Assembly: GCA_963741925.1 (NCBI GenBank)
Contig: CAVUJU010000002.1
Location: forward strand, 595,978-659,977
Direction of reading: 5' to 3'
DNA: 64,000 bases
Source of the DNA: an uncultured Acidobacteriota bacterium
GTDB taxonomy: Bacteria > Acidobacteriota > Thermoanaerobaculia > Multivoradales > DATKCC01
A program made the translations under genes and the position numbers. This document shows, in pieces, positions 1 through 56,198 of the stretch. The notes below the pieces were generated by a model that saw nothing but the letters and a program-made list of their open reading frames with translations, was not told where the DNA came from and made no database searches. Within the stretch, counting starts at the first letter, position 1, and every line of letters starts with the position of its first letter.

Positions 1-297
1 CGCCCTCGGCGAGAATGTCCTGCATTCTTTCCACGCGAACACGATGGGGCTCAACCCGCTGGCGGGCCACTGCGACCATCTCCGATGCCGAGTCGATCCC
101 GTGGGCGTCGATGCCGGCCGCGATCGCCTTCTCCAGGAGCACACCCGTGCCGCAGCCGACGTCCAGCAGCCGACAGGAGTCCGGTGCGACGTCGAGCGCC
201 GCTTCGGTGACGAAGGCCTGATCGTCTCGGTAGTGGTCCGGCGGCGTGTGCAGGTCGTAGCGGTGCGCAAACTCGCCAAACAGCCTATAGGCCTCAC
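1..297 (-). CDS. class I SAM-dependent methyltransferase (5' part only; gene continues past window start)
   Basis: Reverse-strand translation VSEAYRLFGEFAHRYDLHTPPDHY...LLDVGCGTGVLLEKA (GxGxG motif I). The GTG start at 297 overlaps the upstream TGA (GTGA). Confidence 0.6.
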   Translation of the reverse strand, partial: MRPIGCLASLRTATTCTRRRTTTETIRPSSPKRRSTSHRTPVGCWTSAAARVCSWRRRSRPASTPTGSTRHRRWSQWPASGLSPIVFAWKECRTFSPRA

Positions 298-3200
298 TCA
301 CTGGCAGAGCCCTCCGCTCTTGCCGCGGGCATCGTGGTGAACGCCTTCACCGCCGCCTCGGTCACCTCCAGAGGTCGAGACCGGTTCGAAGAGGCAAGCG
401 GAGCGAGGCAGTCGAGAAGCCGCTCCAACGTGCGTTTCTGGCGCGGCGTCGCCGGCTTCAGCTTGCAGAGGCCGCCCAACTTCCGTTTCTCGTCCCGGAG
501 ACTGGCCCACTCCGCGAGGTTCGAGTCGGCAAGAGCCAGGAGCCGCGCGTAGCGTCGAAACCCGGTTGCCTCGCAGCGCGGGCAGGGCGTCTCCTTCGAG
601 CTCTCCTGGAGGCTGCGCGCCCACTCGTCGTCAGGGCTCCTCTGCGATTCATCCAGGAGGCGGCGAAAGAGGCCGTCCCAGCGCAGCCAGGAGGACACCT
701 GGGCCGGGTTCGAGCCGCGCTTCTTGAGAAACGAGCCTGGGCCCGGACGCGACCAGAAACCGTAGAGGATCAGTTCGCGGCCTCTGCCGTCGAGGCGTTC
801 GAAGGGGGTGCGGGCCGTCCAGAGACCCTCCCGGGCCATCCGGCTGAGGAACGGCTTGAGCTCGTTGCGGCGGACGCCCTTCATCACGGCATTGGCCTGC
901 GGCGTCAAGAACCCTTCCTCCTCCGGCGCCAACCGTCGATTCGCAACGACCAGCGCCTCGTCTAGCGTTCTGACCGTCCGGCGACCGCCGCACATGAGGC
1001 AGCGACCGGCGGGTTCGAGCCGCGAGAACTGAACCGGCACCGGCGCCATCGGCCCCACCAGGCCTCTCTCGAGGTCGAGTAGACGTTCCGAGCTGGCGGC
1101 GACCAGACGGCCGTGGGCGTCCCGAAGCTCCACGTAGCGGGAGCCGACGGCGAAGGCGTCTCGAAGCACCTCGGCCCTCTCCCTCCGCCCGCCGGTCTTC
1201 GGCACGAGGCGGTCCCCCGTCGCCCGAAGCCTCCGGACATCCAAGCTCGCTTTTCGAGACGCCCACGGCTCGCCCTTCTCGGTCACCAGCCGGAGGCCTT
1301 CCTTCGACAGATGATCCTCGGTGGTCTTGACCACCGATTGGGGGAGGTCCACTCCCCAGACCTGGAGATCCGTCAGGAAGGGATGGATTGCCAGCCATCC
1401 CCCGGGGACGATCTCCCATTCCGCGAGAAGGTCGTCGAACGCTTCGCCAGGCGGCTTGCGCAGGTCGAGCAGGAGCTTGGGGAGCTCAAGGTCCAGTCCG
1501 GCTACCTCCCAGGCCTCGGCGCCCGCCTCGGCTAGCTCGTAGAGGACCACCACGGGTTCAGCGAGGCCGTCTTCGGCCAAGGCCTGGGGAACTCCGTCTC
1601 CTTGGATGAGCGTTCGCAGGAGGGAGCGGGTCCTGGAAACCTGCTCCGGCACGGACAGCTTCTTCCCGCCGACTCGAGGTCGGGAACCGGCCGGCTTCTC
1701 GGGCTTCGGCAACTTGCCGGCGAGAGCGCGCCCTGTCGGCGTCGGAGCCTTCTCGAGCCGGCCAGGGGGACCGGAGAACACGATCTGCCCTCCATTTGGG
1801 CCACTGCCCGGCCCGAACTCGAGGACCCAGTCCGCGGCTCGAATCAAGCTGAGATCGTGCTCGACCATGACGATCGTGTTCGCCCCGTCCTCGAGGAGTC
1901 GCTCGAGCGCGCTGGCGAGGCGCCGAACATCCTCGCGATGAAGCCCGACCGCCGGCTCGTCGAGGAGGTAGATCGTGTGCTTCCCTACCGACCCACTCAG
2001 GTGCATCGCCAGGCGCAGGCGCTGGACTTCACCTCCGCTCAAGCTGTCCAGACGCCGGCCGAGCGCAACGTAGCCGATACCGAGGTCGCACATGCCGCTG
2101 ATCAAGGGCTCGGAGATGCCGAACGTGTCGACCAGGCGGCCGAGCCGATCGACTGGCATCTCGAGGAGCTCTTGCACGTTGGTGCCTGCCACGCGGACCG
2201 ACAGCACCTCATGCGTGTAGCGCGAGCCGCCACAGCGTGGGCAGACGGAGAACCGGCTACCGTCTTCCACCTCCCCCAGGCCGGCGCAGACCGGACACCG
2301 GCCGTTGCCGGCGTTGACACCGAAATCGCTCGGCGACAGTCGTTCCCGACGGGCGGCCGGCGAGGATCCGAAGGTCTTGCGAATGGCGTCGAAGTCGCTT
2401 GAAAAGGTGGCAACGAGACTTCTGCGGTTGGCTGGCGGTGTCGCCTGGTCAAGTGCGACGATCTCCTGAAGGGAGCTTAGCCCGGAGATCGACTTCCAGC
2501 GACCGCGGCGAAGCGAGAATTCCTCAGCGTCGTCCCCCACCTCCTGAAGCAAGGCCGGGGCGAGCACCCCCCTGAGGAAGCTCGACTTGCCTGAGCCGGA
2601 GACGCCACAGATGCAAGTGAGCCGGCCGAGGGGAATCTCACAGTCGACATCCTCCAGGTTGTAGATCGAAGCGCCGCAGACTTCGATCTTCGGATGGTCG
2701 CGGGCGATCTTCGAGGGCTGCCGCAGCCGATCCTCTCCTGAGGGCCGTGGCCAGTTGCGCCGTGGGCCGGCGTAGACGACCTCGCCGCCCTTCGAGGCCG
2801 CGCCAGGCCCTAGCTCGACGAGCCAATCCGCTGCCTCCCAAAGAGTCTCGCGATGCTCGTTGAGAATGACCGTATGGTCGTCGCGCAGCCGGTCGAAGGC
2901 GGCGGCTAGCGGAGCCAGGTCGGACTCGTGGAGCCCCCGGGCCGGTTCGTCGAGAAGCAGGCACAGGCCGCGTTCCCCGGCGTCGAGAACACGCGCGAGT
3001 CGGACTCTACGGCTTTCCCCCTTGCTCACCTCGATCATGCTTCGGTCTCCGGTGAGATAGCCGAGGCCGACCGAGATGAGAGACGAGGCATGCCTGCGGA
3101 GGTGTCGGACAAAAGGGACTCCTTCACGGGGGACAGCCTGTACGAGATCTCCCTGGTCCGCCGTCAGGTCGAGAACCTGGCGGAAGGTCATGGCGAGAAT

Positions 3201-4568
3201 CTCGGCGATGCCGTACCTACCGACACGTAGCGCTCTCGCCTGGAAGGACCAGCGCGTCCCGCCGCAGTAGCTGCACGGCCCGACCTCGACGAAGGCACCC
3301 AGGCGCTCGCCGGCCTTGGTCTTTCCCGCCACCTTCTCGAACACGATCTCTTCGAACCCGGCGAAGGGCCGTGGCCTGCCGATCTTGCGACCGGAGGCGT
3401 CGCGATCGAAGACGGGCTCGTCGCCGCTCCCGCCCAGTACGAGAGCTCGGGCGTCGTCGGAGAGCTTCGACCAGGGGATGTCCGGAGAGAAGCGGTGCAT
3501 GCCCCGCAGGCCTTCGATTGTCTCATGCTGAACATTCACATACTTGTAGTTCTTCTCCGTCCAGATCGCGAATGCGCCGTCTCGCATGGAACGTTCCGGG
3601 CGCGAAACGAGGCTCTCCTCGTCGAGTCGGTAGTCCACGCCTGTCCCATGACAGTTGGTGCAGGCCCCGCTCAGCTCATGATCCGGGGCGTTGAACGAGA
3701 GTAGATGCGGAGATGGCGGCGCGAACACTCCCGGAGTCTCTGGGTGGACCCAATGTTTCGTCGAATCGAGGCGAGCTCCGAAGGGCCCCATGAGGTCCGG
3801 GTTGGACGACTCGGGCAGCATGACGACCACCGAGCCCTTGGAGGCCGCGAAGGCGAGCTCCAACATCTTGCGCAACGCCTTCCTCTGGCCAGGGCCATTG
3901 ACTTCGATCTCCCCGATCGATGCCTCGATGGTGTGCCGCACGTTTGGGTTAAGTGGCTTGAACTCGGTCGTGGGGATCGAGCGGCCAGCCTCACGGATCG
4001 ACGCGGGGTCGGTCTCGCTGCGGACCACAAGCTGCTCGATACCCTTAGATGCCAGCCGCCGAACCGCGATGCGGCCGTCCGTTCGCTCGTTCCGGATGGG
4101 AGTGGCCCAGACCTCGGCGGTGCCCCGGTAGTGTTTGGCAATCCAGCGGGAGTATGTCTCCGCCGAGGGCGGTGGCACCTCGGCTCGGGCGCGCTCGGAG
4201 TACGGCTTGGAGGCGAGGACGAATAGCCGGCGAAGCACCGACAGGAAACCCGTGGCCGTGCCGACGGTTGTCCTGACGCTCGGCTGGAAGCCGCGCTGCC
4301 CTACCAGGACTGTCGGCGGCATCCTGCCGACAAAGGCCCGCACGTCGTCGCGTTCGAGGTCATCCTGCGTGGCTCCCAGGAACAGGCGGGTCCGGCGTGC
4401 TCCCTCGGCCGCCAGCGTGTCCGCAAGAAGGGAGCTCTTCCCTGATCCGGAGACTCCCGTAACGACAGAGATTCTTCCCAACGGGAAGGCGACATCGACG
4501 TTCTTCAGGTTGTTGGCGTCGCCACCGACGACTTCGATCGCTTCCGAGCTGCGAGGACGTGCCGTCAC
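294..4568 (-). CDS. UvrA-like double ABC ATPase (~975 aa core) fused to a ~450-aa C-terminal extension of unknown function
   Basis: N-terminus IEVVGGDANNLKNVDVAFPLGRISVVTGVSGSGKSSLL and second module IEVCGASIYNLEDVDCEIPLGRLTCICGVSGSGKSS match both UvrA ABC modules. It also has two LSGGE signatures, Walker B LLDEP, and zinc-finger Cys pairs (CTNCHGTG, CPVCAGLG..CPRCGGSRY). The track ORF 294..4649 is one continuous frame. The likely true start is GTG at 4568, overlapping the upstream stop (GTGA). Confidence 0.75.
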   Translation of the reverse strand: MTARPRSSEAIEVVGGDANNLKNVDVAFPLGRISVVTGVSGSGKSSLLADTLAAEGARRTRLFLGATQDDLERDDVRAFVGRMPPTVLVGQRGFQPSVRTTVGTATGFLSVLRRLFVLASKPYSERARAEVPPPSAETYSRWIAKHYRGTAEVWATPIRNERTDGRIAVRRLASKGIEQLVVRSETDPASIREAGRSIPTTEFKPLNPNVRHTIEASIGEIEVNGPGQRKALRKMLELAFAASKGSVVVMLPESSNPDLMGPFGARLDSTKHWVHPETPGVFAPPSPHLLSFNAPDHELSGACTNCHGTGVDYRLDEESLVSRPERSMRDGAFAIWTEKNYKYVNVQHETIEGLRGMHRFSPDIPWSKLSDDARALVLGGSGDEPVFDRDASGRKIGRPRPFAGFEEIVFEKVAGKTKAGERLGAFVEVGPCSYCGGTRWSFQARALRVGRYGIAEILAMTFRQVLDLTADQGDLVQAVPREGVPFVRHLRRHASSLISVGLGYLTGDRSMIEVSKGESRRVRLARVLDAGERGLCLLLDEPARGLHESDLAPLAAAFDRLRDDHTVILNEHRETLWEAADWLVELGPGAASKGGEVVYAGPRRNWPRPSGEDRLRQPSKIARDHPKIEVCGASIYNLEDVDCEIPLGRLTCICGVSGSGKSSFLRGVLAPALLQEVGDDAEEFSLRRGRWKSISGLSSLQEIVALDQATPPANRRSLVATFSSDFDAIRKTFGSSPAARRERLSPSDFGVNAGNGRCPVCAGLGEVEDGSRFSVCPRCGGSRYTHEVLSVRVAGTNVQELLEMPVDRLGRLVDTFGISEPLISGMCDLGIGYVALGRRLDSLSGGEVQRLRLAMHLSGSVGKHTIYLLDEPAVGLHREDVRRLASALERLLEDGANTIVMVEHDLSLIRAADWVLEFGPGSGPNGGQIVFSGPPGRLEKAPTPTGRALAGKLPKPEKPAGSRPRVGGKKLSVPEQVSRTRSLLRTLIQGDGVPQALAEDGLAEPVVVLYELAEAGAEAWEVAGLDLELPKLLLDLRKPPGEAFDDLLAEWEIVPGGWLAIHPFLTDLQVWGVDLPQSVVKTTEDHLSKEGLRLVTEKGEPWASRKASLDVRRLRATGDRLVPKTGGRRERAEVLRDAFAVGSRYVELRDAHGRLVAASSERLLDLERGLVGPMAPVPVQFSRLEPAGRCLMCGGRRTVRTLDEALVVANRRLAPEEEGFLTPQANAVMKGVRRNELKPFLSRMAREGLWTARTPFERLDGRGRELILYGFWSRPGPGSFLKKRGSNPAQVSSWLRWDGLFRRLLDESQRSPDDEWARSLQESSKETPCPRCEATGFRRYARLLALADSNLAEWASLRDEKRKLGGLCKLKPATPRQKRTLERLLDCLAPLASSNRSRPLEVTEAAVKAFTTMPAARAEGSASE

Positions 4569-5443
4569 GCCACAGGTTCCCCGAGGTGAAGGACGAGGAC
4601 GGACCGGGAGTCGAACTCGGTGGGAAATCGCGTGAACCGCACCGAGCAAGCGCCTCGGTAATGGAGTGCGGTGCGGTTCGACATGAGCACCGTATCGCCT
4701 GGGCGGGTGTGGAAAGGGACCGAGACATCCAGCGCAGCCCGGTGGATCGTGTCGATCATCGTCTCGAGGCCAGGTAGCGGAGCGTTAAGACGCTTGCAGG
4801 CGACGCGGAGGCTCGCTGGGTGATAGCGGATCGTCCGCTCGTTCACGAGCCGCCCTTGCCAGATCGCGGACGAGTGCTCTTGGGCCAAAGTGATCTCGGA
4901 TTCGGTCAGGAACGTCAGCGTGGCAACGTCTGCGGGGGCATCTCTCCTCAGCCGCGCGAGCAAGTCGGGCAGGAAGGCGACCCTCTGCTCCGCATACTCG
5001 GGGCCCCCCGGGTCTTCGATTTCGCATTGGAGCGCCGTGCAGCAGGGCGGCCTCGCAGAGACATTCGCATCAGTGTGGAACTCGCCAGCTTGCGTAGTAT
5101 GTGAAAGCTCCTTCGTCCATGGCGACATTCGGAAGCGCTTGACGATCCGGCCCGGGGGATAGGTCTCGAAAGAAGCGCCGAGCGCGCAGCTCGCAAGGAG
5201 CAGGGATCGCCCCCCATCCACCTGGAGGCTCCGGACCACGGCGTAGCCGCAATCGGCGATCGTTGTGCGTACGTGCTCGGAGAAGCCCTTCCAAGACTCC
5301 AAACGCTGGATGCGTGCCGCTAGGTGGCCTCCAAGTGCCTCTCGCTCTGCCTCCTCTAGGCAGTCGAAGCGCCCTGCCAGGTGGCAAATCTCGCACCTCA
5401 GATCCGCGCTGACCTGAATCTCAGGAAGTAGCCGCGCGGACAT
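4565..5443 (-). CDS. TauD/TfdA-family Fe(II)/2-oxoglutarate dioxygenase
   Basis: 292 aa with an HxD...H facial triad context (GEFHTDAN ... TALHYRG) typical of the TauD family. GC is lower and codons atypical (CTA, TTG, GCA). Confidence 0.55.
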   Translation of the reverse strand: MSARLLPEIQVSADLRCEICHLAGRFDCLEEAEREALGGHLAARIQRLESWKGFSEHVRTTIADCGYAVVRSLQVDGGRSLLLASCALGASFETYPPGRIVKRFRMSPWTKELSHTTQAGEFHTDANVSARPPCCTALQCEIEDPGGPEYAEQRVAFLPDLLARLRRDAPADVATLTFLTESEITLAQEHSSAIWQGRLVNERTIRYHPASLRVACKRLNAPLPGLETMIDTIHRAALDVSVPFHTRPGDTVLMSNRTALHYRGACSVRFTRFPTEFDSRSVLVLHLGEPVA

Positions 5444-6146
5444 CGGCCACCTGGAGACGGAAGATCAGTTTCTGCCGGTAGTGGTGCTCGAGCATGGTTC
5501 GCACGTCCGGGTAAGTGAACTCGGCGTTGAGCGGATCGTAGGTCACCCACCCCGATCGGCGCAGAGGTTGCACCGAAGGCAGAAGTCCCGCCTCAGACGC
5601 AGCCCTCATCACATCCAGCGGAGCGTGATCGTAGACCTGGTGGCCGGCGGCGACCAAGGTCTTTCTCCACTCCTGCCACAGTGGGTTCTCGGCGTGGGCA
5701 CCCAGCACGACATAGGCGACACCGCTTGGAGCCAAGACCCTGCGAATCCGCCCCATCGCCTCTCGAAGATCGTGCTCGAGGTACAGCTCCTCGTGGCTCG
5801 TAACTAGATCCACGACACCGTCGGGAATCTGGCCCCAGTCGCAGGAGTCGAGAAGCCTGACTCGCGCCGAGAGAGACGCGAGGCGTCGGCTGGCGCGACT
5901 GCGGGCGTCGCCCAGCGGCTCGACTCCGAAGATCTGGACCGGGCGAAAGCGGCGGGCCAGAGCCTCGAGAAGGCCTCCAGTATGGCAGCCGATGTCCAGG
6001 ATCACTCGCGGTTCAGCTTGGGAGTCCGTTTCGACATGCCTGATCACAGACGCCCAGAATGCCTCGTTGGCCCGAGGCAAGCCTTCATCGAGCGCAGGGT
6101 CGCCGAAGAAGGTCCGAGGTTCCGAGCCGGCGGCCTTCAAGGGCAT
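5421..6146 (-). CDS. class I SAM-dependent methyltransferase
   Basis: Motif I VILDIGCHTGGLLEALA. Internal start MPLKAAG at 6146 overlaps the upstream gene's stop (ATGCCCTTGA). Its stop overlaps the dioxygenase start. Confidence 0.6.
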   Translation of the reverse strand: MPLKAAGSEPRTFFGDPALDEGLPRANEAFWASVIRHVETDSQAEPRVILDIGCHTGGLLEALARRFRPVQIFGVEPLGDARSRASRRLASLSARVRLLDSCDWGQIPDGVVDLVTSHEELYLEHDLREAMGRIRRVLAPSGVAYVVLGAHAENPLWQEWRKTLVAAGHQVYDHAPLDVMRAASEAGLLPSVQPLRRSGWVTYDPLNAEFTYPDVRTMLEHHYRQKLIFRLQVADVRAATS

Positions 6147-19439: not shown

Positions 19440-20750
19440 CTAGACATCTAGCTTTCGCAGCCAGCGGCCGAAGCCGGCGTCGAGCTCGGCCCAGTCCCGG
19501 CCAAGGCTCGCCCGCAGCGCCGCCGGCCCGCCGTCGCCGCCGGCGGCGATCGCGGCGAGGTAGCTCCGGAAGCCTCGGGCCAGCGCCTCGTCCCCGCCGT
19601 CGAGGAGGTAGCGGACGAAAAAGGCGCTCTCGGCGTAGGCATCCTCCCGCAGGCCGGGATCGACGATCTCTCGCCAAGAGAGGCCGGTGAGCTCCGCGAG
19701 CGGCGGCAGCCGCCCGCGGTTCAGGAGCCTGGTCAGCCGACCGAGGGCGGCGTAGGCCCCCTCCGTGGTCACGGTGATCTCGATCCGGTCCCGTCCCGCG
19801 GCGCTCGAGGCCTTGCGCTCGCTCACCGACTCCTCGCCTCCGAGGCTCCCCGGGAGGAGCCGCCCCGCGGCGTCCACCCGCGAGTCGCCCAGGTCGTCGG
19901 CCAGGCCCTCTTCGAGCCAGGGCGGCGTTCGCGGGCCCAGGGCGCGGCCGTTGATCAGGTGGGTGAGCTCGTGGACGAGGAGGGCGCTCACCTGCCAGTC
20001 CTTCTTGCCCTCGGCGAAGAGCGCCGCCACCCCGAAGCCCGCGTGCCCGCCCTCCTCGAGGCCGGCGTAGGCCAGGTCGCCGGAGGCGAAGGCCCGGTAG
20101 TCGGCCTCGCGGGAGAAGAGGACCACCGCCTGGCCGGCCGCCGAGCCCGAATCGAGCCCGTAGCGGCTCCGGTACGTCGCCTCGAGGCCCGCGGCGACCG
20201 CCTCCAGACGCCCGAGGAGCTTGGAATCCCCGACGTCGGTATAGACGGCGTACGGACCGAGCTCGCGGCGGGTGTCCTCTCCGGGCAGGGCGGCGAGGGC
20301 CCGCGCCAGGATCTCGCGGTCCGCCGCCCGCGCCGGCAGGGCGCCGGCCGGGCCCGCGCCGCCCGCCTCCCGCGCCAGCGGCACCCACCCCTTGAACGCT
20401 CCGTACCGGACCAGCGCCCACCCGCCGCGGCGCTCGACGAGAGGCAGCTCGGACGGGGCGTCGACCACCGCCAGGGCCGCCGCCCGGGCGTCGGGGAGCT
20501 CGTGGAGGGCGGTGCCTTGCGCCACCTCGATCCGGGGCTCCGCGAGGTCGGCGGAGCCGAAGGCCGCGGGGGCGCCCAGAATCTCCGACGGGCTCTCCGG
20601 CGGGCTTGCCGGGGACGGCGCGGCCGACGGGGCGGGCCGCGGCGCCGGGGGCTCGGCCGACGCCGCCGTCTGCGGCGCGAGCGACGCCGACGCGGCGACG
20701 ACGAAGGCCAGTACGGAGCGCCCGGCCCGGCGCCGGCCCCGGCCGGTCAC
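19440..20750 (-). CDS. secreted HExxH zincin-like protein (DUF1570-like putative metallopeptidase)
   Basis: Signal peptide, motif LLVHELTHLINGRAL. The GTG start overlaps the upstream TGA. Confidence 0.5.
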   Translation of the reverse strand: MTGRGRRRAGRSVLAFVVAASASLAPQTAASAEPPAPRPAPSAAPSPASPPESPSEILGAPAAFGSADLAEPRIEVAQGTALHELPDARAAALAVVDAPSELPLVERRGGWALVRYGAFKGWVPLAREAGGAGPAGALPARAADREILARALAALPGEDTRRELGPYAVYTDVGDSKLLGRLEAVAAGLEATYRSRYGLDSGSAAGQAVVLFSREADYRAFASGDLAYAGLEEGGHAGFGVAALFAEGKKDWQVSALLVHELTHLINGRALGPRTPPWLEEGLADDLGDSRVDAAGRLLPGSLGGEESVSERKASSAAGRDRIEITVTTEGAYAALGRLTRLLNRGRLPPLAELTGLSWREIVDPGLREDAYAESAFFVRYLLDGGDEALARGFRSYLAAIAAGGDGGPAALRASLGRDWAELDAGFGRWLRKLDV

Positions 20751-22087
20751 CGCACCATCCGGACGTCGCCGGCCGCCGGCCCGGTCTCGATCGTCTGCGG
20801 CAGGTGCAGGCCCCGGAACCAGACGATGCGCTGGCGCTCGAGGGTCCGCGACAGCTCGTCGACCGCCCGCTTGAACCCGCGGCGCGAGTAGACGCTGTCG
20901 ACCTCGCCCCAGGTGGCCGTGACCGGCGGGCTCACCGACTTCTCCACCGACCAGACGAAGAGGGGCACCCCGAGGTCGGTCAGGTAGCGCCGGACCGCCC
21001 GAGGGGTCATGCGGCTCGCGTCGGCGGGCTGGGCGCTCAGGACCAGGACCACGGCGCGCCGCCGGTCCCGGGCCGCCGCGCTCATGCCGGCCACGGCCAC
21101 GGCGTCGGCCAGGCGCTGGCGGCGGAGATCGAACGGCGGCTGCTGGGCCGCCGAGAGCAGGTAGTAGACGCCACCGTCCGACGGCAGATGCTCCTCGGAG
21201 CGGGCGAACAGGTCGTAGCCGACGCGGCCGTTCTCGCGGTGCAGCGAGAACGGCCAGAGGAACCGCAGGCTCTGATCCCGGTCCAGGCGCATGGCGGAGC
21301 GGAGCAGCTCGCGGGCTCGCGGGCCGGTTCCCACCGACGGGAAGGCCCGGCCGTTGGAAGGCACCCAGCGGGGGGCGAGGGCCCACAGGCCTTTTTGGGC
21401 CGCGCGGTCCATCACCACCACGACCTCGGCCGGCCCTGTCTCCGCCGCCACCGGCTCCAGCGGTTGACCCTGGGCCCGGAACCACCCGGCGAGCTCGGCC
21501 GGCGCCGGCAGCTCCTTGCGACCCTCGAGCTCGACGGCGGCGGCGCTCAGCTCGGTCTCGGTCGCCTGGTGGTAGGCGCCCCCGAACGCCGTCTCGACCA
21601 CCGCGGAGAGGTGGGACGGGAAGTCGAGCTCGGCGTGCAGGAAATGCAGCTGGTCCGGGTCGTGGGGCGGCAGCTCGATCCGGTGCGGATCGGAGACCGC
21701 GAGCGGCCGGCCGTCGAAGCTCACCGTCACCTTGCGGGGCGCGTCGCCCGAGACGCTCTCCCAGGTGAGCCGGGCGACGACGCCCCGGCCGCCCTCGCCG
21801 CCCTCGAAGATCACGTGGCCCTCGGCCTCGGGCCGGGGCAGGTTGATCCACTGGCGCGCCCGGCCCAGCTCCCGGCCGTCGGCGGCGCGGGCGATCGCCT
21901 CGAGCCGGTGGGGCTCGAGGGCGGAGCCGAAGTCGCAGGGCAGGGTCCAGGGAGCGCCCCCCATCTGCCCCACGCTGCGCCCGTCCAGCACCAGCTCGAC
22001 GGAGGCCACCCCCTGCCCCACGGCGAGCTCCACCGGCTGGACACCCAGGACCAGGCCGAGGAACAGGCTGGCGAACGCGACGATCAC
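20747..22087 (-). CDS. hypothetical exported protein
   Basis: 446 aa with N-terminal hydrophobic signal MIVAFASLFLGLVLG. RBS GAAGGAG is 6 nt upstream, and GCTACAAT sits about 37 nt upstream. Confidence 0.45.
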   Translation of the reverse strand: MIVAFASLFLGLVLGVQPVELAVGQGVASVELVLDGRSVGQMGGAPWTLPCDFGSALEPHRLEAIARAADGRELGRARQWINLPRPEAEGHVIFEGGEGGRGVVARLTWESVSGDAPRKVTVSFDGRPLAVSDPHRIELPPHDPDQLHFLHAELDFPSHLSAVVETAFGGAYHQATETELSAAAVELEGRKELPAPAELAGWFRAQGQPLEPVAAETGPAEVVVVMDRAAQKGLWALAPRWVPSNGRAFPSVGTGPRARELLRSAMRLDRDQSLRFLWPFSLHRENGRVGYDLFARSEEHLPSDGGVYYLLSAAQQPPFDLRRQRLADAVAVAGMSAAARDRRRAVVLVLSAQPADASRMTPRAVRRYLTDLGVPLFVWSVEKSVSPPVTATWGEVDSVYSRRGFKRAVDELSRTLERQRIVWFRGLHLPQTIETGPAAGDVRMVR

Positions 22088-22141: not shown

Positions 22142-23725
22142 TCAGAGGATCAGCCGGTCGATCAGCCGGAGCACGGCGCCGGCGAAGAGGGCCGACGCGC
22201 CGGCGGCGAAGAGCAGGATGGCCCCCATCGCCAGGGTCAGGAGGTAGAGCCCGAGCAACAGGAGCGGCCCCATGACCAGGGTGAAGACGATCATCTCCAC
22301 GACGCCGCGCCGCCCGTCGCGGCGGAGCCGCTCCCGAAACCCCGGCCGCTTCGCCGTCGCTGCCGCGAGCGCCGGGTCCGAGGGGTCTGCGCCCAGGGCG
22401 GCCAGGCGGCGCAGGCGGCGCTCGAGCTTGGGATGGGAGCCGACCGGGACCGGGTGCTCGCCTCTCCCCGCGCTGGGCTCCGGCGCCGCCACGAACAGGT
22501 GCTCGAGCCAGGCGCCGCCAGGGGACGCCACTGCCCCGCCCCCCAGGGCCGCCAGCCCCCGGGCGACCTCGGTGGGGTCGCGGGTGAGCTGGACCGCGGT
22601 GGCGTCGGCGAGGTAGCGGCGGGCGCGGAGCATGCCGCCCACGAGCGGGCCGACGACCACCAGCCGCAGCATCTGGACCTCCAGGCGCACCAGGTGGACG
22701 ACCAGGTAGACGAGGAGGAACGGCAGGAGGAAGAGCTTGAGGACGGGGAACCGCTTGAGGAGGCGCCCGCCGCGGCTCCGGGGCTCGGCCTCGTCGGCGT
22801 CGCTCGCGAGCCCCAGCAGGCCGTCGAAGCGCTCGGGGGCGAGGCGCCCCTCGAGGCTCCCGGCCACCGCCTCCGCGGTCGCCGGCGAGCGCCGCCCCCG
22901 GAGCATCCAGCCGAGGGCCCTGACCATCTCGCGCCAGGCCGCGGGGCTCCAGCCCATGAGGGCGTCGAGGAGGGTGAACACGAAGCCCATGGCCTGGAAG
23001 ACCGCGGTCACGGCGAGGGCGAGGCGAGGATCGCCGTTGGCCGCCGAGGCGACGAGCAGGGCGGCGACGCCCTGGGTCTCGCCCCGGTCGCAGCGCTCGA
23101 GCACCCCGCGGGTCACCACCACCACCGCGCGCTCCGGGGACGGCCCGACCAGGGCGGCGTTCGGCGCCTCCTGATCGATCAGGAGGACCCGCGGCGCCGG
23201 CACGCCCGCGGCGATCGCCATCTCCTGGACCACGTCGACGAGCTGGTGCTCCTCGAGGTCGCCCGCGCGGGGCTCGCGCGCCCCGAGGCGGGCCAGCACG
23301 GCGCCCGGCACGACCTCGCTCGCGAGGCGCCGGAAGCCCGCCCAGACGGCGACCATGGCCGCCACCCCGGGCACCAGGAGGACGGCGAGCGCCGCCGCCA
23401 GGTCGAGGCGGCCGAGCGCACCGGCCGGCGCGCTCCCGGTCCACGCGTCCAGGGCCGCCGGCACCAGCCCCGCCAGGTGGTGCAAGGCCGCCCACACCGC
23501 AACCGGCACCGGCGTGACCAGGCCGACCAGGCGCACGCCCACCGCCACGACACCGAAGACCAGGGGGGTGAGGACCGCCGTGAGGGGCAGCCCCATGACC
23601 AGGATCGCGACCCCGCACAGGGCCGCCCACCAGCGCGCGTGGCGCCGCCGGCTCGCCTGCTCGTCGTAGAAGCTCCGACGGCGGGATGGACCGGCGGCGG
23701 AGTCACCAGGCGCTTCGCGCAGCAC
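22142..23725 (-). CDS. M48 (HtpX-like) peptidase-fold membrane protein lacking the HExxH motif (probable pseudo-protease)
   Basis: The region VDVVQEMAIAAGVPAPRVLLIDQEAPNAALVGPSPERAVVVVTRGVLERCDRGETQGVAALLVASAANGD aligns to HtpX ...VYIIDSPQPNAFATG...GVLAHELSHIRNGD, but has ALLVAS where HELSH is expected. Multiple TM helices. Confidence 0.5.
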   Translation of the reverse strand: MLREAPGDSAAGPSRRRSFYDEQASRRRHARWWAALCGVAILVMGLPLTAVLTPLVFGVVAVGVRLVGLVTPVPVAVWAALHHLAGLVPAALDAWTGSAPAGALGRLDLAAALAVLLVPGVAAMVAVWAGFRRLASEVVPGAVLARLGAREPRAGDLEEHQLVDVVQEMAIAAGVPAPRVLLIDQEAPNAALVGPSPERAVVVVTRGVLERCDRGETQGVAALLVASAANGDPRLALAVTAVFQAMGFVFTLLDALMGWSPAAWREMVRALGWMLRGRRSPATAEAVAGSLEGRLAPERFDGLLGLASDADEAEPRSRGGRLLKRFPVLKLFLLPFLLVYLVVHLVRLEVQMLRLVVVGPLVGGMLRARRYLADATAVQLTRDPTEVARGLAALGGGAVASPGGAWLEHLFVAAPEPSAGRGEHPVPVGSHPKLERRLRRLAALGADPSDPALAAATAKRPGFRERLRRDGRRGVVEMIVFTLVMGPLLLLGLYLLTLAMGAILLFAAGASALFAGAVLRLIDRLIL

Positions 23726-23728
23726 GGC

Positions 23729-25237
23729 TCAGGCCAGGAAGACCCAGTAGCTGCCGGAGGCCGACCGTCTCTCCGACAGGCCGAAGCGCTCGCCGGCCGA
23801 CTTGCCGTCCCGCAGCAGGTAGTACACGTCGGAAAGAACCGATCGATTGTCGCCGTAGTAGAAATGCCCGACGAGGTCCGTGTCCACCGCCGAGGCGTCG
23901 ATCGTTTCCACCTCCGGGACCACCACGATGTTCGCTCCGGCGTCTCCCGCCCGCGGGTAGCCGTGAAACTTCCGGGACGCCTCGAGGGCCCGGTCCTTGT
24001 CGGAGGCGTAAAGGGTCACCCGGCGAGCCGCCCTTCGCAAGGCGGACGCCATCTGGCGGAAGACGTCGGCGTCGATGTCGGGAGCGGTGAGCACGACCTC
24101 GCTGAAGGCCGGCGTGCCGGGCGCGGCCATGGTTGCGGCGATCTCCCCGAGGGCCCGGGTCAGTGCGCGGTTGCCCATGCTGTGGGCGATCAGGTGGATC
24201 GCCCGCGCTCCCGAGCCCGACGCCAGGTCGACCAGGAACGACTTCAGGTGGGGCACCGTCCACTCCACGTTGGTCTCGTCGTGGGCGTACCCGGTGAGGG
24301 AGAGCTTCCCTTTCGACGGCCAGCTATAGAAGACCGGCGCGCCCTCGAGCTTCAGGTCGTAGGCGAGCTGCGCGGTGCGCCTGGCGGCGTCCTCGAAGGA
24401 GACGTTGAAGCCGTGGAGGAAGAGCAGGATCTCACCGCGAACAGAGGCCTCGAGGCATGCCGAGAGCTCGGCGAAGAAGCCGGCCGCTTCGGCTTTCCGG
24501 AGAGACAGGAGGACGACGTGCTCCCGCGGGTCCCTCCGCAGCTCGAGGCGCCGCCAGGAGGGTCCCTCCAGGGCGCCCATCCGGTGGTCCCTTGGAATGC
24601 TCACCTCGCAGACCCCGTACTCCAGGGAGCCGTCGCCCCGGGTCGAGCCGAAATGGCGGGCGGCCGGGCGCGATCCGCCGGGCTTGCGGTCCGTGGCGTA
24701 GAAGACCTCGACCCGGTGGTAGGGGACTCGGGGAGGCGCCTCGTAGGCCTCGTCTGGGGCGCCGCCCCCCGACGTGTCATGCCCGAGCCCCGTATCGGTG
24801 TCGTAGGCTCCTTCCACCTCGACACCCAGGTCTCTCCCGGCGGTTCCCCGGCTCGGAGCCCGCGGGGCGCCGCCCGCTCTCTCCCCGCGCCGCCTCGTCT
24901 CGTCGGGCCGACGCCGGCTGGGCCGCCGCCCGGTTCCAATCCTCTCGGTGCCCTGGCTCGGCCGCGCCGGTCCAAGCAGGTCGTCAGGGGGCCGGAAGCG
25001 CACGGCGAAGCTCTCCCGGATCCGGATCGGCGCTCCCGTCGCGGGACTGCGCCCGGGTCTCGCCGGCCGCCGGTGGACCGAGAACGCACCGAAGCGAGGG
25101 ACGGTGACCCGCTCACCGCGGGCCAGGGCCGCCCGGATCGCCGCGAGCACCGCGTCGAGGATCTCGGCGGCCTGGCCCTTGGTGAGCCCGTCGACGCTCT
25201 CCCAGAGGTCCTCCACCAGGTTCGCCCTGCCCGCCAT
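23729..25237 (-). CDS. fusion of N-terminal HU/IHF-like DNA-binding domain and C-terminal DUF900-type alpha/beta hydrolase
   Basis: The N-terminus LTKGQAAEILDAVLAAIRAALARGERVTVPRFGAFSVHRRPARPGRSPATGAPIRIRESFAVRFRP fits the HU pattern (FG.F.V..R.AR.GRNP.TG..I.I). The C-terminus has a GxSxG nucleophile (IAHSMGNRAL) in a DUF900-like context. Confidence 0.55.
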   Translation of the reverse strand: MAGRANLVEDLWESVDGLTKGQAAEILDAVLAAIRAALARGERVTVPRFGAFSVHRRPARPGRSPATGAPIRIRESFAVRFRPPDDLLGPARPSQGTERIGTGRRPSRRRPDETRRRGERAGGAPRAPSRGTAGRDLGVEVEGAYDTDTGLGHDTSGGGAPDEAYEAPPRVPYHRVEVFYATDRKPGGSRPAARHFGSTRGDGSLEYGVCEVSIPRDHRMGALEGPSWRRLELRRDPREHVVLLSLRKAEAAGFFAELSACLEASVRGEILLFLHGFNVSFEDAARRTAQLAYDLKLEGAPVFYSWPSKGKLSLTGYAHDETNVEWTVPHLKSFLVDLASGSGARAIHLIAHSMGNRALTRALGEIAATMAAPGTPAFSEVVLTAPDIDADVFRQMASALRRAARRVTLYASDKDRALEASRKFHGYPRAGDAGANIVVVPEVETIDASAVDTDLVGHFYYGDNRSVLSDVYYLLRDGKSAGERFGLSERRSASGSYWVFLA

Positions 25238-25327: not shown

Positions 25328-25717
25328 TCACCAGCGCACCACCCGGTCCGCTTCGGCGATCATGCGGGTGAACCGGGACCAGCCGCAGATCAGGTCGACC
25401 TTGCCCTGGACGCGGGCCGTGTCGAGGTCGAGCAGGCGCACCGAGGCGCTGCACGCGAAGAGGCGGAGACGACCGCTCGTGCGCGCGCCGGCGATCAGGT
25501 CCGAGAGGGGTGGGAATCCCAGCTGCTCGATTCGCTCGGCGGCCAGCGGCGGCGCCGGGTCGAGGCGGTCCCAGCCGTCCCGGACCCAGGCGTCGAGGGC
25601 GGCGAAGAAGAGGGCGAGGTCCACCCGGTCGCCCTGGCCCGCGGCGCTCGCCGCCAGCGAGCTCACCTGGAAGCGCGTGTCCCAGGTGCCGTCGTGGGCG
25701 AGGACGAGGAGCTTCAC
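25328..25717 (-). CDS. DsrE/DsrF-like family protein
   Basis: 129 aa starting MKLLVLAHDGTWD, with a C-terminal Cys (FACSASVRLL) typical of DsrE-fold proteins. Confidence 0.4.
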   Translation of the reverse strand: MKLLVLAHDGTWDTRFQVSSLAASAAGQGDRVDLALFFAALDAWVRDGWDRLDPAPPLAAERIEQLGFPPLSDLIAGARTSGRLRLFACSASVRLLDLDTARVQGKVDLICGWSRFTRMIAEADRVVRW

Positions 25718-25730
25718 GCCGCGCGGGAGG

Positions 25731-26759
25731 TCACGAGACGGTCCAGGTGTCTCCGCTGTAGAGCAGGTCCTCGAGGCGGGTCTGGCCGGCGCGCTCCACC
25801 TCGTGCTCGACCTGGGCGACGACCTCGGCGTCGTAGGCGGGCTCGTCGACGGCGCGGAAGACCCCGAGCGGCGTCGGGAAGTCCGGGGGCAGGAGCTGGG
25901 CCGCCATGAAGGCGAGGGCCGGGTTCGGCCGCCGCTCGTCCCAGACCAGGCAGTCCTCCTCGGAGACCCCCCCTCCGGATGGATCCAGGGTCACGATCTC
26001 GGGCTCCATGCCGTCGAGGCGCAGGCCGCGCTTCGTCTCGCCGCCCCAGACCACGGGCTTTCCGTGCTCGAGGTAGAGGGTGCGCTCGACCCGGCCCTCC
26101 TTGTCGGTCATGTACTCGAAGGCCTTGTCGTTGAAGATGTTGCAGTTCTGGTAGATCTCGACGAAGGCGGAGCCGCGGTGCTCGGCGGCGCGCTTCAAGA
26201 CCGCCTTCAGGTGGGGCTGGAAGATGTCCACCGTCCGGGCGACGAAGGTGGCGCCGGCGCCCAGGGCCAGGGCCGCCGGGTTGAACGGCCGGTCGATGGA
26301 GCCGAAGGGGGTCGACTTGGTGCGCTTGCCGACCTCGCTGGTGGGCGAGTACTGCCCCTTGGTCAGGCCGTAGATCCGGTTGTTGAACATCAGGATCTTG
26401 ACCCCGACGTTGCGCCGCAGGACGTGGATCAGGTGGTTGCCGCCGATCGACATGGCGTCGCCGTCGCCGGTGGCGATCCAGACCTCGAGGTCCGGCCGGG
26501 TGACCTTGAGCCCCGTGGCGATCGCCGGCGCCCGGCCGTGGATCGAGTGGAAGCCGTAGGTGTTCATGTAGTAGGGGAAGCGGCTCGAGCAGCCGATCCC
26601 CGAGACCACCACCAGCTTCTCCTTCGGGATCCCGAGCTCCGGGAAGACCGACTGGACGGCGGCCAGGATGGCGTAGTCCCCGCAGCCGGGGCACCAGCGC
26701 ACCTCCTGGTCGCTCTGGAAGTCCTTCTTGGTGAGGGTGGGGGCTTCGATCTCCGGCAT
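25731..26759 (-). CDS. korB: 2-oxoglutarate:ferredoxin oxidoreductase beta subunit (TPP-binding)
   Basis: WCPGCGDY and the TPP motif GDGD...GGNH..H, full-length. Confidence 0.9.
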   Translation of the reverse strand: MPEIEAPTLTKKDFQSDQEVRWCPGCGDYAILAAVQSVFPELGIPKEKLVVVSGIGCSSRFPYYMNTYGFHSIHGRAPAIATGLKVTRPDLEVWIATGDGDAMSIGGNHLIHVLRRNVGVKILMFNNRIYGLTKGQYSPTSEVGKRTKSTPFGSIDRPFNPAALALGAGATFVARTVDIFQPHLKAVLKRAAEHRGSAFVEIYQNCNIFNDKAFEYMTDKEGRVERTLYLEHGKPVVWGGETKRGLRLDGMEPEIVTLDPSGGGVSEEDCLVWDERRPNPALAFMAAQLLPPDFPTPLGVFRAVDEPAYDAEVVAQVEHEVERAGQTRLEDLLYSGDTWTVS

Positions 26760-26766
26760 CGCTCGT

Positions 26767-28644
<1,878 letters not shown>

Positions 28645-49280: not shown

Positions 49281-51315
49281 GGGATAGGCCCGGGCGAGCA
49301 AGCCCGCCCGGGTCCCCCCACAGATCCGGACGTGCGGATTTCCCGCATCCGGCTCCTCGTGACACGGGTTCGCTGCACGACGTCAAGCGGCGTGGACGAT
49401 CTTCGGCCGCGGCAAGGGGTAGGCGCCGAGGAGGCGGACGAACCGCTCCCAAGGCATCGACCTCTTGCCCGACCGCCGGTCGAGCCACTTGCGCCACTCG
49501 CGCGTGACCTGGCGGTAGAAGTTGTCGAGTGCGTGGAAGTTGCCGGTAATGCCGTAGTAACCGTAGTGGCCCTGCAGCGCTCGCGACAGCCGTCGCTGCT
49601 GCGTCGCCACGGGGTCGTGACGGCCCTGCCGACACCGTTCCCGCATCCGACTCATCGACCGAGCAAACCGACTCGCGGCCGTCGTGCGCTTGACCACCCA
49701 CGACCCTCGCTGGCGCCCACCCTTGCCCCAGAAGTGCGTGAACCCGAGGAAGACGAAGGTGCCCGGACCCTCGGGCCCGGACCCGTCGCTCCCCCACCGT
49801 GGCCGGCGGAAGCGCACCCGTCGCGTCTTCTCCGGGTGCAGGCGCAGACCGAAGCGGGCGAGCCGCTTCGGCAGCACCTCTTCCACCCGACGGGCGTCGT
49901 GCTCGTCGGCGAAGACGATCACCAGATCGTCCGCATACCGCACCAGCACAGCGCGCCCACGAAGCCGCGGTTGGACCTCTTCCTCCCACCACCGGTCCAC
50001 CACCTCGTGAAGGTAGACGTTGGCCAGCAAGGGCGAGATGACGCCTCCCTGCGGAGTCCCCGCCTCGGGGTGACGTACACGCCCCTCTTCCATCACACCC
50101 GCCTGCAGCCACTTGCCAATTGCCCTCCGGATCACGCCGTCGCGCACCCGGCGGTCGAGAAAAGACCTCAAGTGGTCCCGATCCAGCTCGTCGAAGAAGC
50201 TCTGGATGTCGACCTCCAGTACCCACCCACCCCCGAGCTCGGAGAGCTCCTTGCGCAGAACGCGCAGCGCATCGTGCGCCGAGCGACCGGGCCGAAAGCC
50301 GTACGAGCAGTCCAAGAAGTCCTCCTCGTAGATGGCCTCCAGCACCATCGTCACCGCACGCTGCAGCACCTTGTCTTCGAAGGTGGGGATCCCGATCGCA
50401 CGGGTCTCCGACCCGGTGCCTTTCGGAATGTGAGCCCGCTGGACCGGCGGCGCTCGGTAGAGGCCTGACTTGAAGCGGTCGAGAAGCGACCGGAGGTTGC
50501 CCCCGAGGTTCTCCTCGTACTGCTTCGCCGTCCGGCCGTCGATGCCTGGCGCTCCGTCCTTGCGGGTCCGGGAGTAGGCCTCCCAGAGCCAGTGCTCGTC
50601 GATGTAGTGAGCCAGACTGAGAAACGACCGCTCGTGGTCCTCCCTCGCCAGCCTCGCTATCCGACGAAGTCGCGTTGAGATGCTCCCGAGATTCGGCGAT
50701 CCCGACATCGTTCCCCTCGTTCGGTTCCGTGTCCCGGAGCCCCCCTTCCCTCCACCGGGTCCCTTGGGTCGGTTCCCCGGCTTCCACGGTACTACGGGGG
50801 CTCTCTGACTCCCCACCACCCTTCCCGCCGGGCTCGGTTTCCTTCGCCGGGCGGTACCGCCTGTGCGACCGCTCCTTCGCTCCCGGGGTGCGCGGTCGGC
50901 CTCGACCACGGGCCTGGATCTTGGGTCAGCCGGGACCCTCACCGGCACGTTCTTCGGCGGAGATGGAAGGGCCTCCCAGGTTCCTGGAGGGACCCTTGGA
51001 CGTATGCCGTGCTCTCTGACCCCGGCCGAGCCCTTGCGCCAGGCCATTGCGGCGCTCGGGTGCTGTCGCCCGTTCCACTACAAGGACGACCTCAGCGAGA
51101 CGTGCATTTCGAGGCTCCATCACACGGCCTCCGCCCTCGCTGTCTACGCTTCGCAGGTGCCCTTGCGGTGCCGCCCACGCAAGACTCGCTTCTGGCTGGT
51201 GGCCAACCTTTGCCAGGCGGGGCTCACACCCGCCGGGTCCCATCTGGAAAGTTTCCGGCTCTGTTGACCCGCGTCTACATCACCTTCCTCCTTCCCCAGG
51301 CTTTGCCTGGCGCAC
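49280..51315 (-). mobile_element. group II intron (~2.0 kb) with intron-encoded RT/maturase
   Basis: The reverse-strand 5' end is GTGCGCCAGGCAAAGCC (51315 downward). The domain V hairpin GAGCCGGATGCGGGAAATCCGCACGTCCGGATCT lies at 49302-49338, followed by a domain VI-like helix. The IEP ORF lies in the domain IV position. Confidence 0.75.
49383..50708 (-). CDS. group II intron-encoded reverse transcriptase/maturase (no En domain evident)
   Basis: RT motifs RAIGIPTFEDKVLQ, PQGGVISPLLANVYL, RYADDLVIVF and the maturase/X region WLQAG...FLGFTHFW. SD GAGGGGAA precedes the ATG at 50708. Confidence 0.85.
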   Translation of the reverse strand: MSGSPNLGSISTRLRRIARLAREDHERSFLSLAHYIDEHWLWEAYSRTRKDGAPGIDGRTAKQYEENLGGNLRSLLDRFKSGLYRAPPVQRAHIPKGTGSETRAIGIPTFEDKVLQRAVTMVLEAIYEEDFLDCSYGFRPGRSAHDALRVLRKELSELGGGWVLEVDIQSFFDELDRDHLRSFLDRRVRDGVIRRAIGKWLQAGVMEEGRVRHPEAGTPQGGVISPLLANVYLHEVVDRWWEEEVQPRLRGRAVLVRYADDLVIVFADEHDARRVEEVLPKRLARFGLRLHPEKTRRVRFRRPRWGSDGSGPEGPGTFVFLGFTHFWGKGGRQRGSWVVKRTTAASRFARSMSRMRERCRQGRHDPVATQQRRLSRALQGHYGYYGITGNFHALDNFYRQVTREWRKWLDRRSGKRSMPWERFVRLLGAYPLPRPKIVHAA

Positions 51316-51401
51316 AGTGGCTGGCACCTCTCCGCCGGCACCAGGGTCGGCCGCCCGCGAGGACGTCACCGGTTGAAAGGCGGCTGGCACCTCTCTACAG
51401 C

Positions 51402-52262
51402 TTACCACCCCTCTTTAGCAGCGGTCACTCGTATGAGCAACGGGAGCTGGAGCTCGATCCGCGCGTTCGCGCTAGAACCGGTAGGTCTCTGTTCCAAGTG
51501 ATAGACGAAGGTGGTCGTCAAGGTCTTGCTCGTTTCGGGGCGAAACTGCCATGTTTCGATGTTGGCGGCGGCCTCGGCGCCGAGAAGGCGTTCTCCCGAG
51601 AGCAGCTTCGTGGAAATCACCTTTCCTGCCTGCACTACGACTTTCAAGACCACTTCGCCCGAAATTCCGGCTCGCCGAGCCATCTCAGGATACTTAGGTA
51701 CTTCCGCCGCAACGACTAGAGGCGGCTTTTCCTCCGTTCGAAATCGGATTACCCTGGCAGCGATCTCGCGCGGCGCGGGATGCGCTTCGAGAACCTCGTT
51801 CACGACAAGCTTGGTGCGGAAGCCGTCAAGATGCCCATATCGCCTTCCAGAAACCCGATTCGCATACGCCACAATGGGATTCACTGACAAGTCCTCGGGA
51901 CCCAAAGGCTTCGGGCCGTAGAGTTCGCCGCGAATTGTGACCGAGGCAGAGTGGGACGCCTCGAGAATTCGATCTAAAACGTTACGCCCTGGAGCCTGCG
52001 AACTGACTTCGACCCACGTCGAGGGCTGGACGTCCCATGGGCACAGTGGGTAGTCCGGATCAAAAAAGACCTGTTGCTCCATGCCACTCAGGATTACTCC
52101 AGAGAGGCGAACAGGGATCCGTTGTCCCGCGTTCGCCCTTACCAATGCGGAGCAGAGGTAGAGAACTTCTTCCTGGTTCCTCGCAGTTTGAGCCGGCTGG
52201 CCGCCCAGCACGGTCAGAAGAATTGCTGCTCCTACGCTCAGAGTGATGCTCTTCATAGTCAT
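51402..52262 (-). CDS. exported protein with C-terminal TonB_C-like domain; candidate immunity protein of the orphan RHS toxin
   Basis: Signal peptide MTMKSITLSVGAAILLTVLG and a C-terminal PKYPEMARRAGISGEVVLKVVV. GC is ~50%. It lies immediately downstream of the RHS C-terminal tip. Confidence 0.45.
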   Translation of the reverse strand: MTMKSITLSVGAAILLTVLGGQPAQTARNQEEVLYLCSALVRANAGQRIPVRLSGVILSGMEQQVFFDPDYPLCPWDVQPSTWVEVSSQAPGRNVLDRILEASHSASVTIRGELYGPKPLGPEDLSVNPIVAYANRVSGRRYGHLDGFRTKLVVNEVLEAHPAPREIAARVIRFRTEEKPPLVVAAEVPKYPEMARRAGISGEVVLKVVVQAGKVISTKLLSGERLLGAEAAANIETWQFRPETSKTLTTTFVYHLEQRPTGSSANARIELQLPLLIRVTAAKEGW

Positions 52263-55135: not shown

Positions 55136-55156
55136 GCCAACAGCAATAGGCCCAAC

Positions 55157-56179: not shown

Positions 56180-56198
56180 GGACGGTTTCTCTGTATCT

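Follow-up and report, generated by a model that had tools for sequence, protein, structure and literature searches.

The open reading frame at positions 22142..23725 (minus strand) of the 64,000-nucleotide stretch analyzed here, which belongs to contig CAVUJU010000002.1 of an uncultured Acidobacteriota bacterium and is referred to in full as the window, is predicted to encode an integral membrane pseudopeptidase related to the M48 metallopeptidase HtpX. The gene specifies 527 amino acids, with a GTG start and a TGA stop codon, as reported in a preliminary description of this DNA. Judged from its sequence and those of its relatives, the encoded protein has kept the M48 fold and lost the catalytic residues, and it represents an old family, preserved by selection, whose members probably bind rather than cleave their target.

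Retention of the M48 fold and loss of the catalytic center

The product of the gene matches the Pfam Peptidase_M48 profile (PF01435) with 37.2 bits (E = 3.4e-9) against a gathering score of 20.3, and thus lies above the curated threshold. The preliminary description, which had named an M48/HtpX-like membrane protein, was therefore founded on a significant similarity. Eight NCBIfam HtpX models also match, the best of them with 104 bits (E = 9e-30), a score well short of the HtpX equivalog cut-off of 355 bits (NF003425 and others), and none of the eight comes close to its own cut-off. Sequence searches retrieved a single solved structure, 3cqb, the HtpX domain of Vibrio parahaemolyticus, which is approximately 30% identical (E = 1.5e-5 with the single sequence and 1.1e-14 with the family profile). 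The AlphaFold2 (AF2) model, built from a 61-sequence family alignment, is confident (mean predicted local distance difference test score of 90.4 and predicted template modeling score of 0.87), and its catalytic domain displays the M48 fold.

In M48 peptidases, the zinc ion is contacted by two His residues, one Glu residue, and the His of the HPx4R active-site plug (PMC7950410), the Glu acting as the third ligand and corresponding to E201 in BepA (PMC7950410). An HMMER alignment of residues 156 to 233 of the query to 3cqb places AALLVASAANGD opposite AHEVSHIANGD, such that LLVAS (residues 223 to 227; 23045..23059, minus strand) occupies the place of HExxH; with its preceding Ala, this is the ALLVAS motif pointed out in the preliminary description. 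The first His is replaced by Leu223, the catalytic Glu by Leu224, and the second His by Ser227. The loss extends to the third ligand, which had escaped the earlier account. In RARRYLAD (residues 367 to 374; 22604..22627, minus strand), which aligns with the canonical SRxREYLAD of active relatives, Arg370 (22616..22618, minus strand) stands in place of the zinc-ligand Glu found in 71 of 71 active relatives; the adjacent R369 is conserved in active relatives as well, and the Glu-to-Arg change is that at position 370. The HPx4R plug (motif as given in PMC7950410) is kept as HPKLERR (residues 431 to 437; 22415..22435, minus strand), its H431 being the sole survivor among the four zinc-contacting residues.

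A misalignment that conceals an intact HExxH or another zincin motif elsewhere in the protein can be given next to no probability. The same register of LLVAS and HExxH was obtained with phmmer against 3cqb and with MAFFT and hmmalign, the latter two applied together with active relatives, and these three independent alignments agree. Furthermore, the 527-residue protein, which contains eight His residues in total, harbors no HExxH, H[ED]xxH, HxxEH, or HxH motif at any position, and HExxH is found in none of the 84 database homologues and none of the 141 new profile-scan members of the family described below.

The strand motif N-A-x-x-x-G, from the beta-strand region ahead of the active-site helix, is also kept, in the form of NAALVG (residues 189 to 194; 23144..23161, minus strand; NAFATG in HtpX), and coincides with a strand at residues 190 to 193 of the AF2 model. 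Its N189, A190, and G194 are conserved in 96%, 92%, and 96% of the zinc-less family, respectively, and the same residues are present in active relatives. With both the HExxH motif and the ligand Glu replaced, canonical zinc binding and water activation are predicted to be impossible for the window's protein. Because HExxH and the Glu ligand are missing, although the profile match, the fold, and the HPx4R motif are all those of M48, the protein should be classified as a non-peptidase M48 homologue and not as HtpX.

A zinc-less family present in at least seven phyla

The conservation of the substituted motif was assessed in a family set of 225 sequences, comprising 84 database homologues and 141 representatives of 50%-identity clusters, and compared with 71 active M48 relatives. 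The first 84 database hits (E values down to approximately 1e-24) all lack HExxH, and HExxH-bearing hits start only below them. The remaining members derive from an HMMER family-profile scan of 1.84 billion representatives, which returned 3083 proteins at an E value of ≤1e-30; the best 150 of these (all with at least 393 bits) were examined, and 141 were new.

Position 224 is Glu in none of the 225 sequences and Leu in approximately 84%, while position 227 is never His and is Ser in approximately 86% (A, L, G, M, V, or T otherwise). Position 370 is Arg in approximately 83%; Lys, Gln, or Cys account for most of the remainder, and two of the 225 sequences have Glu. The first His, at position 223, is present in approximately 80% (alternatively D, Q, N, R, Y, S, or A), and the window's clade, defined by at least 75% identity, additionally lacks this residue, having Leu instead. 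All 71 active relatives possess H/E/H/E at the four positions. The family consensus may be written H-L-x-x-S ... W-R-x-R-R-Y-L-A-D, with Arg or Lys at the former Glu ligand. This near-universal Arg/Lys, together with the preceding Trp, suggests that protein side chains may fill the former metal site.

Beyond the active site, approximately 45 core positions that are at least 80% conserved in the family carry the identical residue in active relatives. Among these shared residues are N-A-x-x-x-G, R214, the N-G-D that follows the active-site helix, R-x-R, L-A-D-A-x-A-V-Q-x-T-R-x-P, and, in the plug motif, Pro and Arg. The family and its active relatives have different residues at only six conserved core positions (191, 224, 227, 366, 370, and 394); in effect, the catalytic residues have been exchanged on a retained scaffold. 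In the plug itself, His, Pro, and Arg are found in 66%, 92%, and 98% of the family, respectively, and in 100% of active relatives; relaxation of the His is as would be expected if no zinc were left for it to cap.

It is distinctly improbable that these proteins are still hydrolases with a rebuilt site, composed either, in most members, of Ser227, His223, and Asp232 or of a metal site formed by other residues such as His431, Asp232, and Asp374. Such a site could be read into the frequencies of Ser227 and His223 given above, into the one helical turn that separates these two positions in the AF2 model, into the invariance of Asp232 and Asp374, and into the presence of the plug His in the query. 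The window's clade, however, has Leu223 and consequently no Ser-His dyad, and positions 227 and 223 vary in a substantial minority of the family, which a nucleophile and its base would not tolerate. Asp232 and Asp374 are equally invariant in active relatives and hence look structural, and the plug His is relaxed.

In a neighbor-joining tree of the core, which carries no support values, the family is monophyletic and cleanly separated from active relatives, a topology which would be consistent with a single ancient loss of the catalytic residues. One-genome-per-species data place the zinc-less family in at least seven phyla, with carriers among the Acidobacteriota (Terriglobia, Thermoanaerobaculia, and Vicinamibacterales), the Chloroflexota (Thermomicrobiales), the Gemmatimonadota, the Actinomycetota (Acidimicrobiales), the Rokubacteria, and the Proteobacteria (Alphaproteobacteria, Burkholderiales, and Steroidobacteraceae). 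The carriers that have been cultured include Dankookia rubra, Steroidobacter gossypii, and Peristeroidobacter soli. Members are labeled in databases as "M48 family metalloprotease" or "Zn-dependent protease with chaperone function."

Maintenance of the gene

Given that every catalytic residue is gone, and that high-GC genomes yield many long spurious open reading frames, as seen here on both strands, the gene might be regarded as a decaying protease relic or a mis-called frame without function. This is very improbable. The 527-codon frame is uninterrupted, and its GC fractions at the three codon positions (0.82/0.53/0.96, in a genome of approximately 75% GC) identify it as a real coding sequence. 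Public assemblies contain one protein that is 100% identical and relatives at 77 to 82% identity. Comparison with the two closest full-length relatives (L001 and L009) yields a ratio of nonsynonymous to synonymous substitution rates (dN/dS) of 0.25 to 0.33 at a dS of approximately 0.45 to 0.5, which indicates purifying selection, and the degenerate catalytic core alone gives a dN/dS similar to that of the whole gene. Moreover, at least 225 sequence clusters from different phyla have the same substitutions in an otherwise preserved core, and the AF2 model built from the family alignment is of high confidence. The pseudoenzyme postulated in the preliminary description therefore looks like a maintained rather than a decaying one.

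As publicly annotated, the identical protein (P0001, 484 amino acids) begins at Met44, 43 codons further in, and thereby omits 23597..23725 (minus strand), which encodes an N-terminal basic motif and a portion of the first membrane helix. The upstream GTG, at 23725, is considered the better start because the omitted N terminus bears a motif that is conserved family-wide; the relatives P0002 to P0004 also fit the longer start, and the P0001 annotation is probably truncated.

Domain organization and membrane topology

Kyte-Doolittle analysis identified five hydrophobic regions in total, which are interspersed with the two halves of the M48 domain. The protein begins with the basic motif RRSFYDEQASRRR (residues 16 to 28; 23642..23680, minus strand), which is conserved in the zinc-less family only and is absent from active relatives. 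Residues R16, F19, Q23, R25, R27, and R28 are present in 80 to 89% of the family (F19 in 89%, Q23 in 88%, and R27 in 88%), and the motif, located where the first long helix begins, probably lies in the cytoplasm. The first hydrophobic region (residues 32 to 81; 23483..23632, minus strand) may form one long or two membrane helices, the AF2 model having helices at residues 19 to 70 and 75 to 95; it harbors a conserved Pro54 midway, and residues 52 to 58 are uncharged family-wide. A further predicted membrane helix (residues 103 to 132; 23330..23419, minus strand), indicated by both Kyte-Doolittle analysis and AF2 and followed by a positive flank, precedes the M48 domain.

The first half of this domain (residues 140 to 232) consists of a helix, three strands, and the degenerate active-site helix, directly after which lies a hydrophobic segment (residues 234 to 257; 22955..23026, minus strand), the counterpart of the third hydrophobic region in HtpX. 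A helical insertion of approximately 65 residues (258 to 323) separates it from the next hydrophobic segment (residues 324 to 359; 22649..22756, minus strand), which runs into the helix carrying the former third zinc ligand (residues 334 to 381 in AF2). Residues 360 to 446 make up the second half of the domain and are followed by a C-terminal hydrophobic region (residues 473 to 523; 22157..22309, minus strand), which is predicted by Kyte-Doolittle analysis and AF2 to form one very long or two membrane helices.

Positive charges cluster family-wide in the N-terminal tail and after helices 103 to 132, 234 to 257, and 324 to 359, and the loop spanning residues 82 to 104 is net negative. This positive-inside pattern, along with the precedent of HtpX, favors a cytoplasmic location for the N-terminal tail and the M48-like domain.

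Linkage to LemA

Across 43 zinc-less loci, LemA (PF04011, E = 1e-49 to 1e-56) was the only widely recurring neighbor, kinase-like neighbor clusters representing apparent lineage background. In 21 of these loci, a lemA gene in the same orientation immediately follows the M48-like gene, often overlapping it; 1 locus has lemA upstream, 20 lack it, and 1 had too little flanking sequence. The active relatives, which represent many phyla, instead have LemA directly upstream in 39 of 40 loci (L045 to L088; for example, L047, 7189..7671 and 8001..). Because this pairing is nearly constant in active relatives, the zinc-less family is taken to derive from a LemA-M48 module.

The 64-kb window, L001, and L009 all lack a LemA-like sequence, and the window's clade sits among branches without an adjacent LemA. 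A LemA-like region fused into the protein itself, which might make up for the missing gene, was considered and rejected: phmmer finds none, and the insertion at residues 258 to 323 is of equal length in LemA-linked and LemA-less members. In the LemA-linked members, which make up about half of the family, the partner of the M48-like protein would probably be the LemA encoded downstream, and in the window's clade this link would have been lost.

LemA itself is still functionally obscure; in the minimal cell JCVI-syn3, normal division is reported to depend on one LemA member (PMC9483919). Our search found no published description of the LemA-M48 gene pair.

Neighboring genes

The gene lies within a packed, co-directional run on the minus strand that begins with 2-oxoacid:ferredoxin oxidoreductase genes (25731..28644, minus strand) and ends with an aminotransferase gene. 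The oxidoreductase genes are followed by a gene for a 129-amino-acid protein, p129 (25328..25717, minus strand), which has no Pfam, NCBIfam, or PADLOC match and is 78 to 85% identical to proteins of L001 and L009 that are encoded at the same position, directly after the oxidoreductase genes.

The immediate upstream neighbor (23729..25237, minus strand) encodes a fusion, assigned by Pfam, of an HU/IHF domain and a DUF900 alpha/beta-hydrolase domain (HU-DUF900). Its architecture is unusual, an HU/IHF-type DNA-binding domain (amino acids 4 to 87) being joined by a Pro/Arg/Gly-rich linker to DUF900 (amino acids 256 to 426). The preliminary description had regarded the two genes as co-operonic, which is borne out as far as spacing is concerned, given that only 3 nt separate the HU-DUF900 stop codon from the pseudopeptidase GTG in the window and 4 nt in L001/L002. 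It is on this arrangement that a specific partnership, with the pseudoprotease acting, for example, as membrane anchor or regulator of HU-DUF900, would have to be founded. A general functional tie is not upheld, however, since HU-DUF900 is located upstream only in the window and L001/L002 and at none of the other 40 family loci. In L009, which encodes an 80%-identical M48-like protein between the same p129, p446, and MA-peptidase flanks (see below for the latter two), HU-DUF900 is absent and the 129-aa gene directly abuts the M48-like gene, which looks like a recent insertion or loss. Because HU-DUF900 is missing from L009 and the rest of the family, the pairing is taken to be recent and dispensable. 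A specific partnership is accordingly unlikely, and it is possible in the window's lineage only, where it is evidently dispensable.

Downstream, a gap of 54 nt that contains an AAGGAG ribosome-binding site precedes the GTG of a gene for a 446-amino-acid protein, p446 (20747..22087, minus strand), which has an N-terminal hydrophobic segment and no Pfam match. Its end overlaps, in a GTGA start/stop arrangement, the gene for a secreted SH3b and MA-clan peptidase (19440..20750, minus strand), in which HELTH is intact. These two genes form a conserved module. A role for p446 as a conserved partner of the pseudopeptidase was considered and rejected: it bears no similarity to the 508-amino-acid downstream protein of the Thermoanaerobaculia member L006, it belongs to a separate large family (at least 477 hits, mostly from Thermoanaerobaculia/Acidobacteriota), and it is paired with the MA peptidase in the absence of an M48-like gene in L089 (6001..8690), the one relative checked.

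PADLOC gave no match for the pseudopeptidase or its four neighbors, and a role in anti-phage defense was rejected on this basis. At the loci of P0008, a member of Acidobacteriota type (L003, 6078..7112, minus strand, and L004), a gene for a 129-amino-acid protein and a TIR_2-domain gene lie upstream of the zinc-less M48 gene in divergent orientation. This 129-amino-acid protein, which has no Pfam match, shows no tblastn similarity (E ≤ 1e-4) to p129 of the window, and the equal length appears coincidental. A promoter and terminator scan of the interval from 19 to 26 kb returned nothing exceeding the shuffled expectation. Elsewhere in the window, GC content dips to 0.61 to 0.64 at 50001..58000 and to 0.65 to 0.68 at 1..6000, compared with 0.70 to 0.77 over the remainder, and these low-GC stretches may be horizontally acquired or otherwise atypical DNA.

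Comparison with known proteins

The best sequence match is HtpX (MEROPS M48B), an inner-membrane zinc endoprotease involved in membrane-protein quality control. The order of elements is shared, namely, membrane helices, the strand region and active-site helix, two hydrophobic segments, the R-x-[FY]-x-A-D helix, and the HPx4R plug. The window's protein differs from HtpX in having LLVAS and R370 for HExxH and the Glu ligand and in being approximately 230 residues longer, its extra elements being the N-terminal basic motif and helices, the central insertion of approximately 65 residues, and the C-terminal hydrophobic extension. Its nearest active relatives are the uncharacterized LemA-linked M48 peptidases of approximately 330 or 634 amino acids (E = 1e-14 to 1e-22), which are 30 to 50% identical over the core and have most core positions in common with the zinc-less family; the two groups are further distinguished by the side on which LemA is encoded, upstream in 39 of 40 active loci versus downstream (21 of 43) or absent in the zinc-less family. 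Ste24/ZMPSTE24 (M48A), BepA (M48), and BlaR1 (M56) all keep zinc and HExxH, unlike the protein described here, and differ in membrane architecture and accessory domains (a seven-transmembrane chamber, a TPR domain, a sensor domain).

Pseudopeptidases are well known as a general phenomenon. The rhomboid relatives iRhom and Derlin are membrane pseudoproteases. Chloroplast FtsHi (M41) is given as a pseudopeptidase in a 2024 review of inactive metallopeptidase homologues, in which M48 and HtpX are mentioned zero times (PMC11266112). FtsHi and iRhom/Derlin likewise combine a membrane protease fold and lost catalytic residues with conservation for non-proteolytic work, but they belong to unrelated folds and families and are eukaryotic or organellar. 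Literature searches returned nothing relevant on M48 pseudoproteases, inactive HtpX homologues, or LemA in conjunction with M48/HtpX, and the zinc-less family appears to be undescribed within the literature that could be searched.

Proposed role of the zinc-less M48 proteins

It is proposed that the protein resides in the cytoplasmic membrane with its M48-like domain, like that of HtpX, facing the cytoplasm; there, an extended polypeptide segment would be held in the former substrate groove without being cleaved. Binding without cleavage is envisaged because the strand and plug motifs are retained. The protein would then take part in membrane-protein homeostasis not as a protease but as a receptor, holdase, or regulator, and a regulatory or scaffolding role, as had been suggested in the preliminary description, is inferred. 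A more specific formulation, in which the zinc-less proteins are phylum-spanning, non-degradative receptors or regulators of a LemA-M48 membrane module, with Arg370 in the former zinc site, is put forward tentatively and is rather less likely than not.

Several observations weigh against a binding pseudopeptidase. The literature yielded no experiment on any family member, and the idea of function by binding draws on analogy with other pseudopeptidases. The first His and the plug His are kept in approximately 80% and 66% of the family, respectively, and some residual binding of a metal or ligand is conceivable in members other than the window's protein, in which the first His is missing. The topology is also ambiguous, as either one or two membrane crossings are possible for the region spanning residues 32 to 81, with the M48 domain ending up on opposite sides in the two cases, and segments 234 to 257 and 324 to 359 have positive charge on both flanks. 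Finally, no LemA is encoded within 64 kb in the window's clade, which shares no neighbor with the wider family either. A binding pseudopeptidase is nevertheless regarded as the probable nature of the protein.

For the window, the consequence is modest: the gene is not to be counted as a protease gene, and one LemA-less member is added to the family. More broadly, more than 150 clusters at 50% identity are labeled as proteases although none has the catalytic residues, and these genes are carried chiefly by soil-dwelling members of the Acidobacteriota, Chloroflexota, Gemmatimonadota, Actinomycetota, and Proteobacteria. That an inactive copy of a membrane quality-control protease is conserved would imply a non-proteolytic job for the M48 fold, and a naturally non-cleaving M48 protein paired with LemA may offer a handle on both proteins. 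If the more specific formulation involving LemA is correct, the family would represent a bacterial counterpart of iRhom, Derlin, and FtsHi and a natural "substrate trap" that could show what HtpX-type proteases and LemA recognize.

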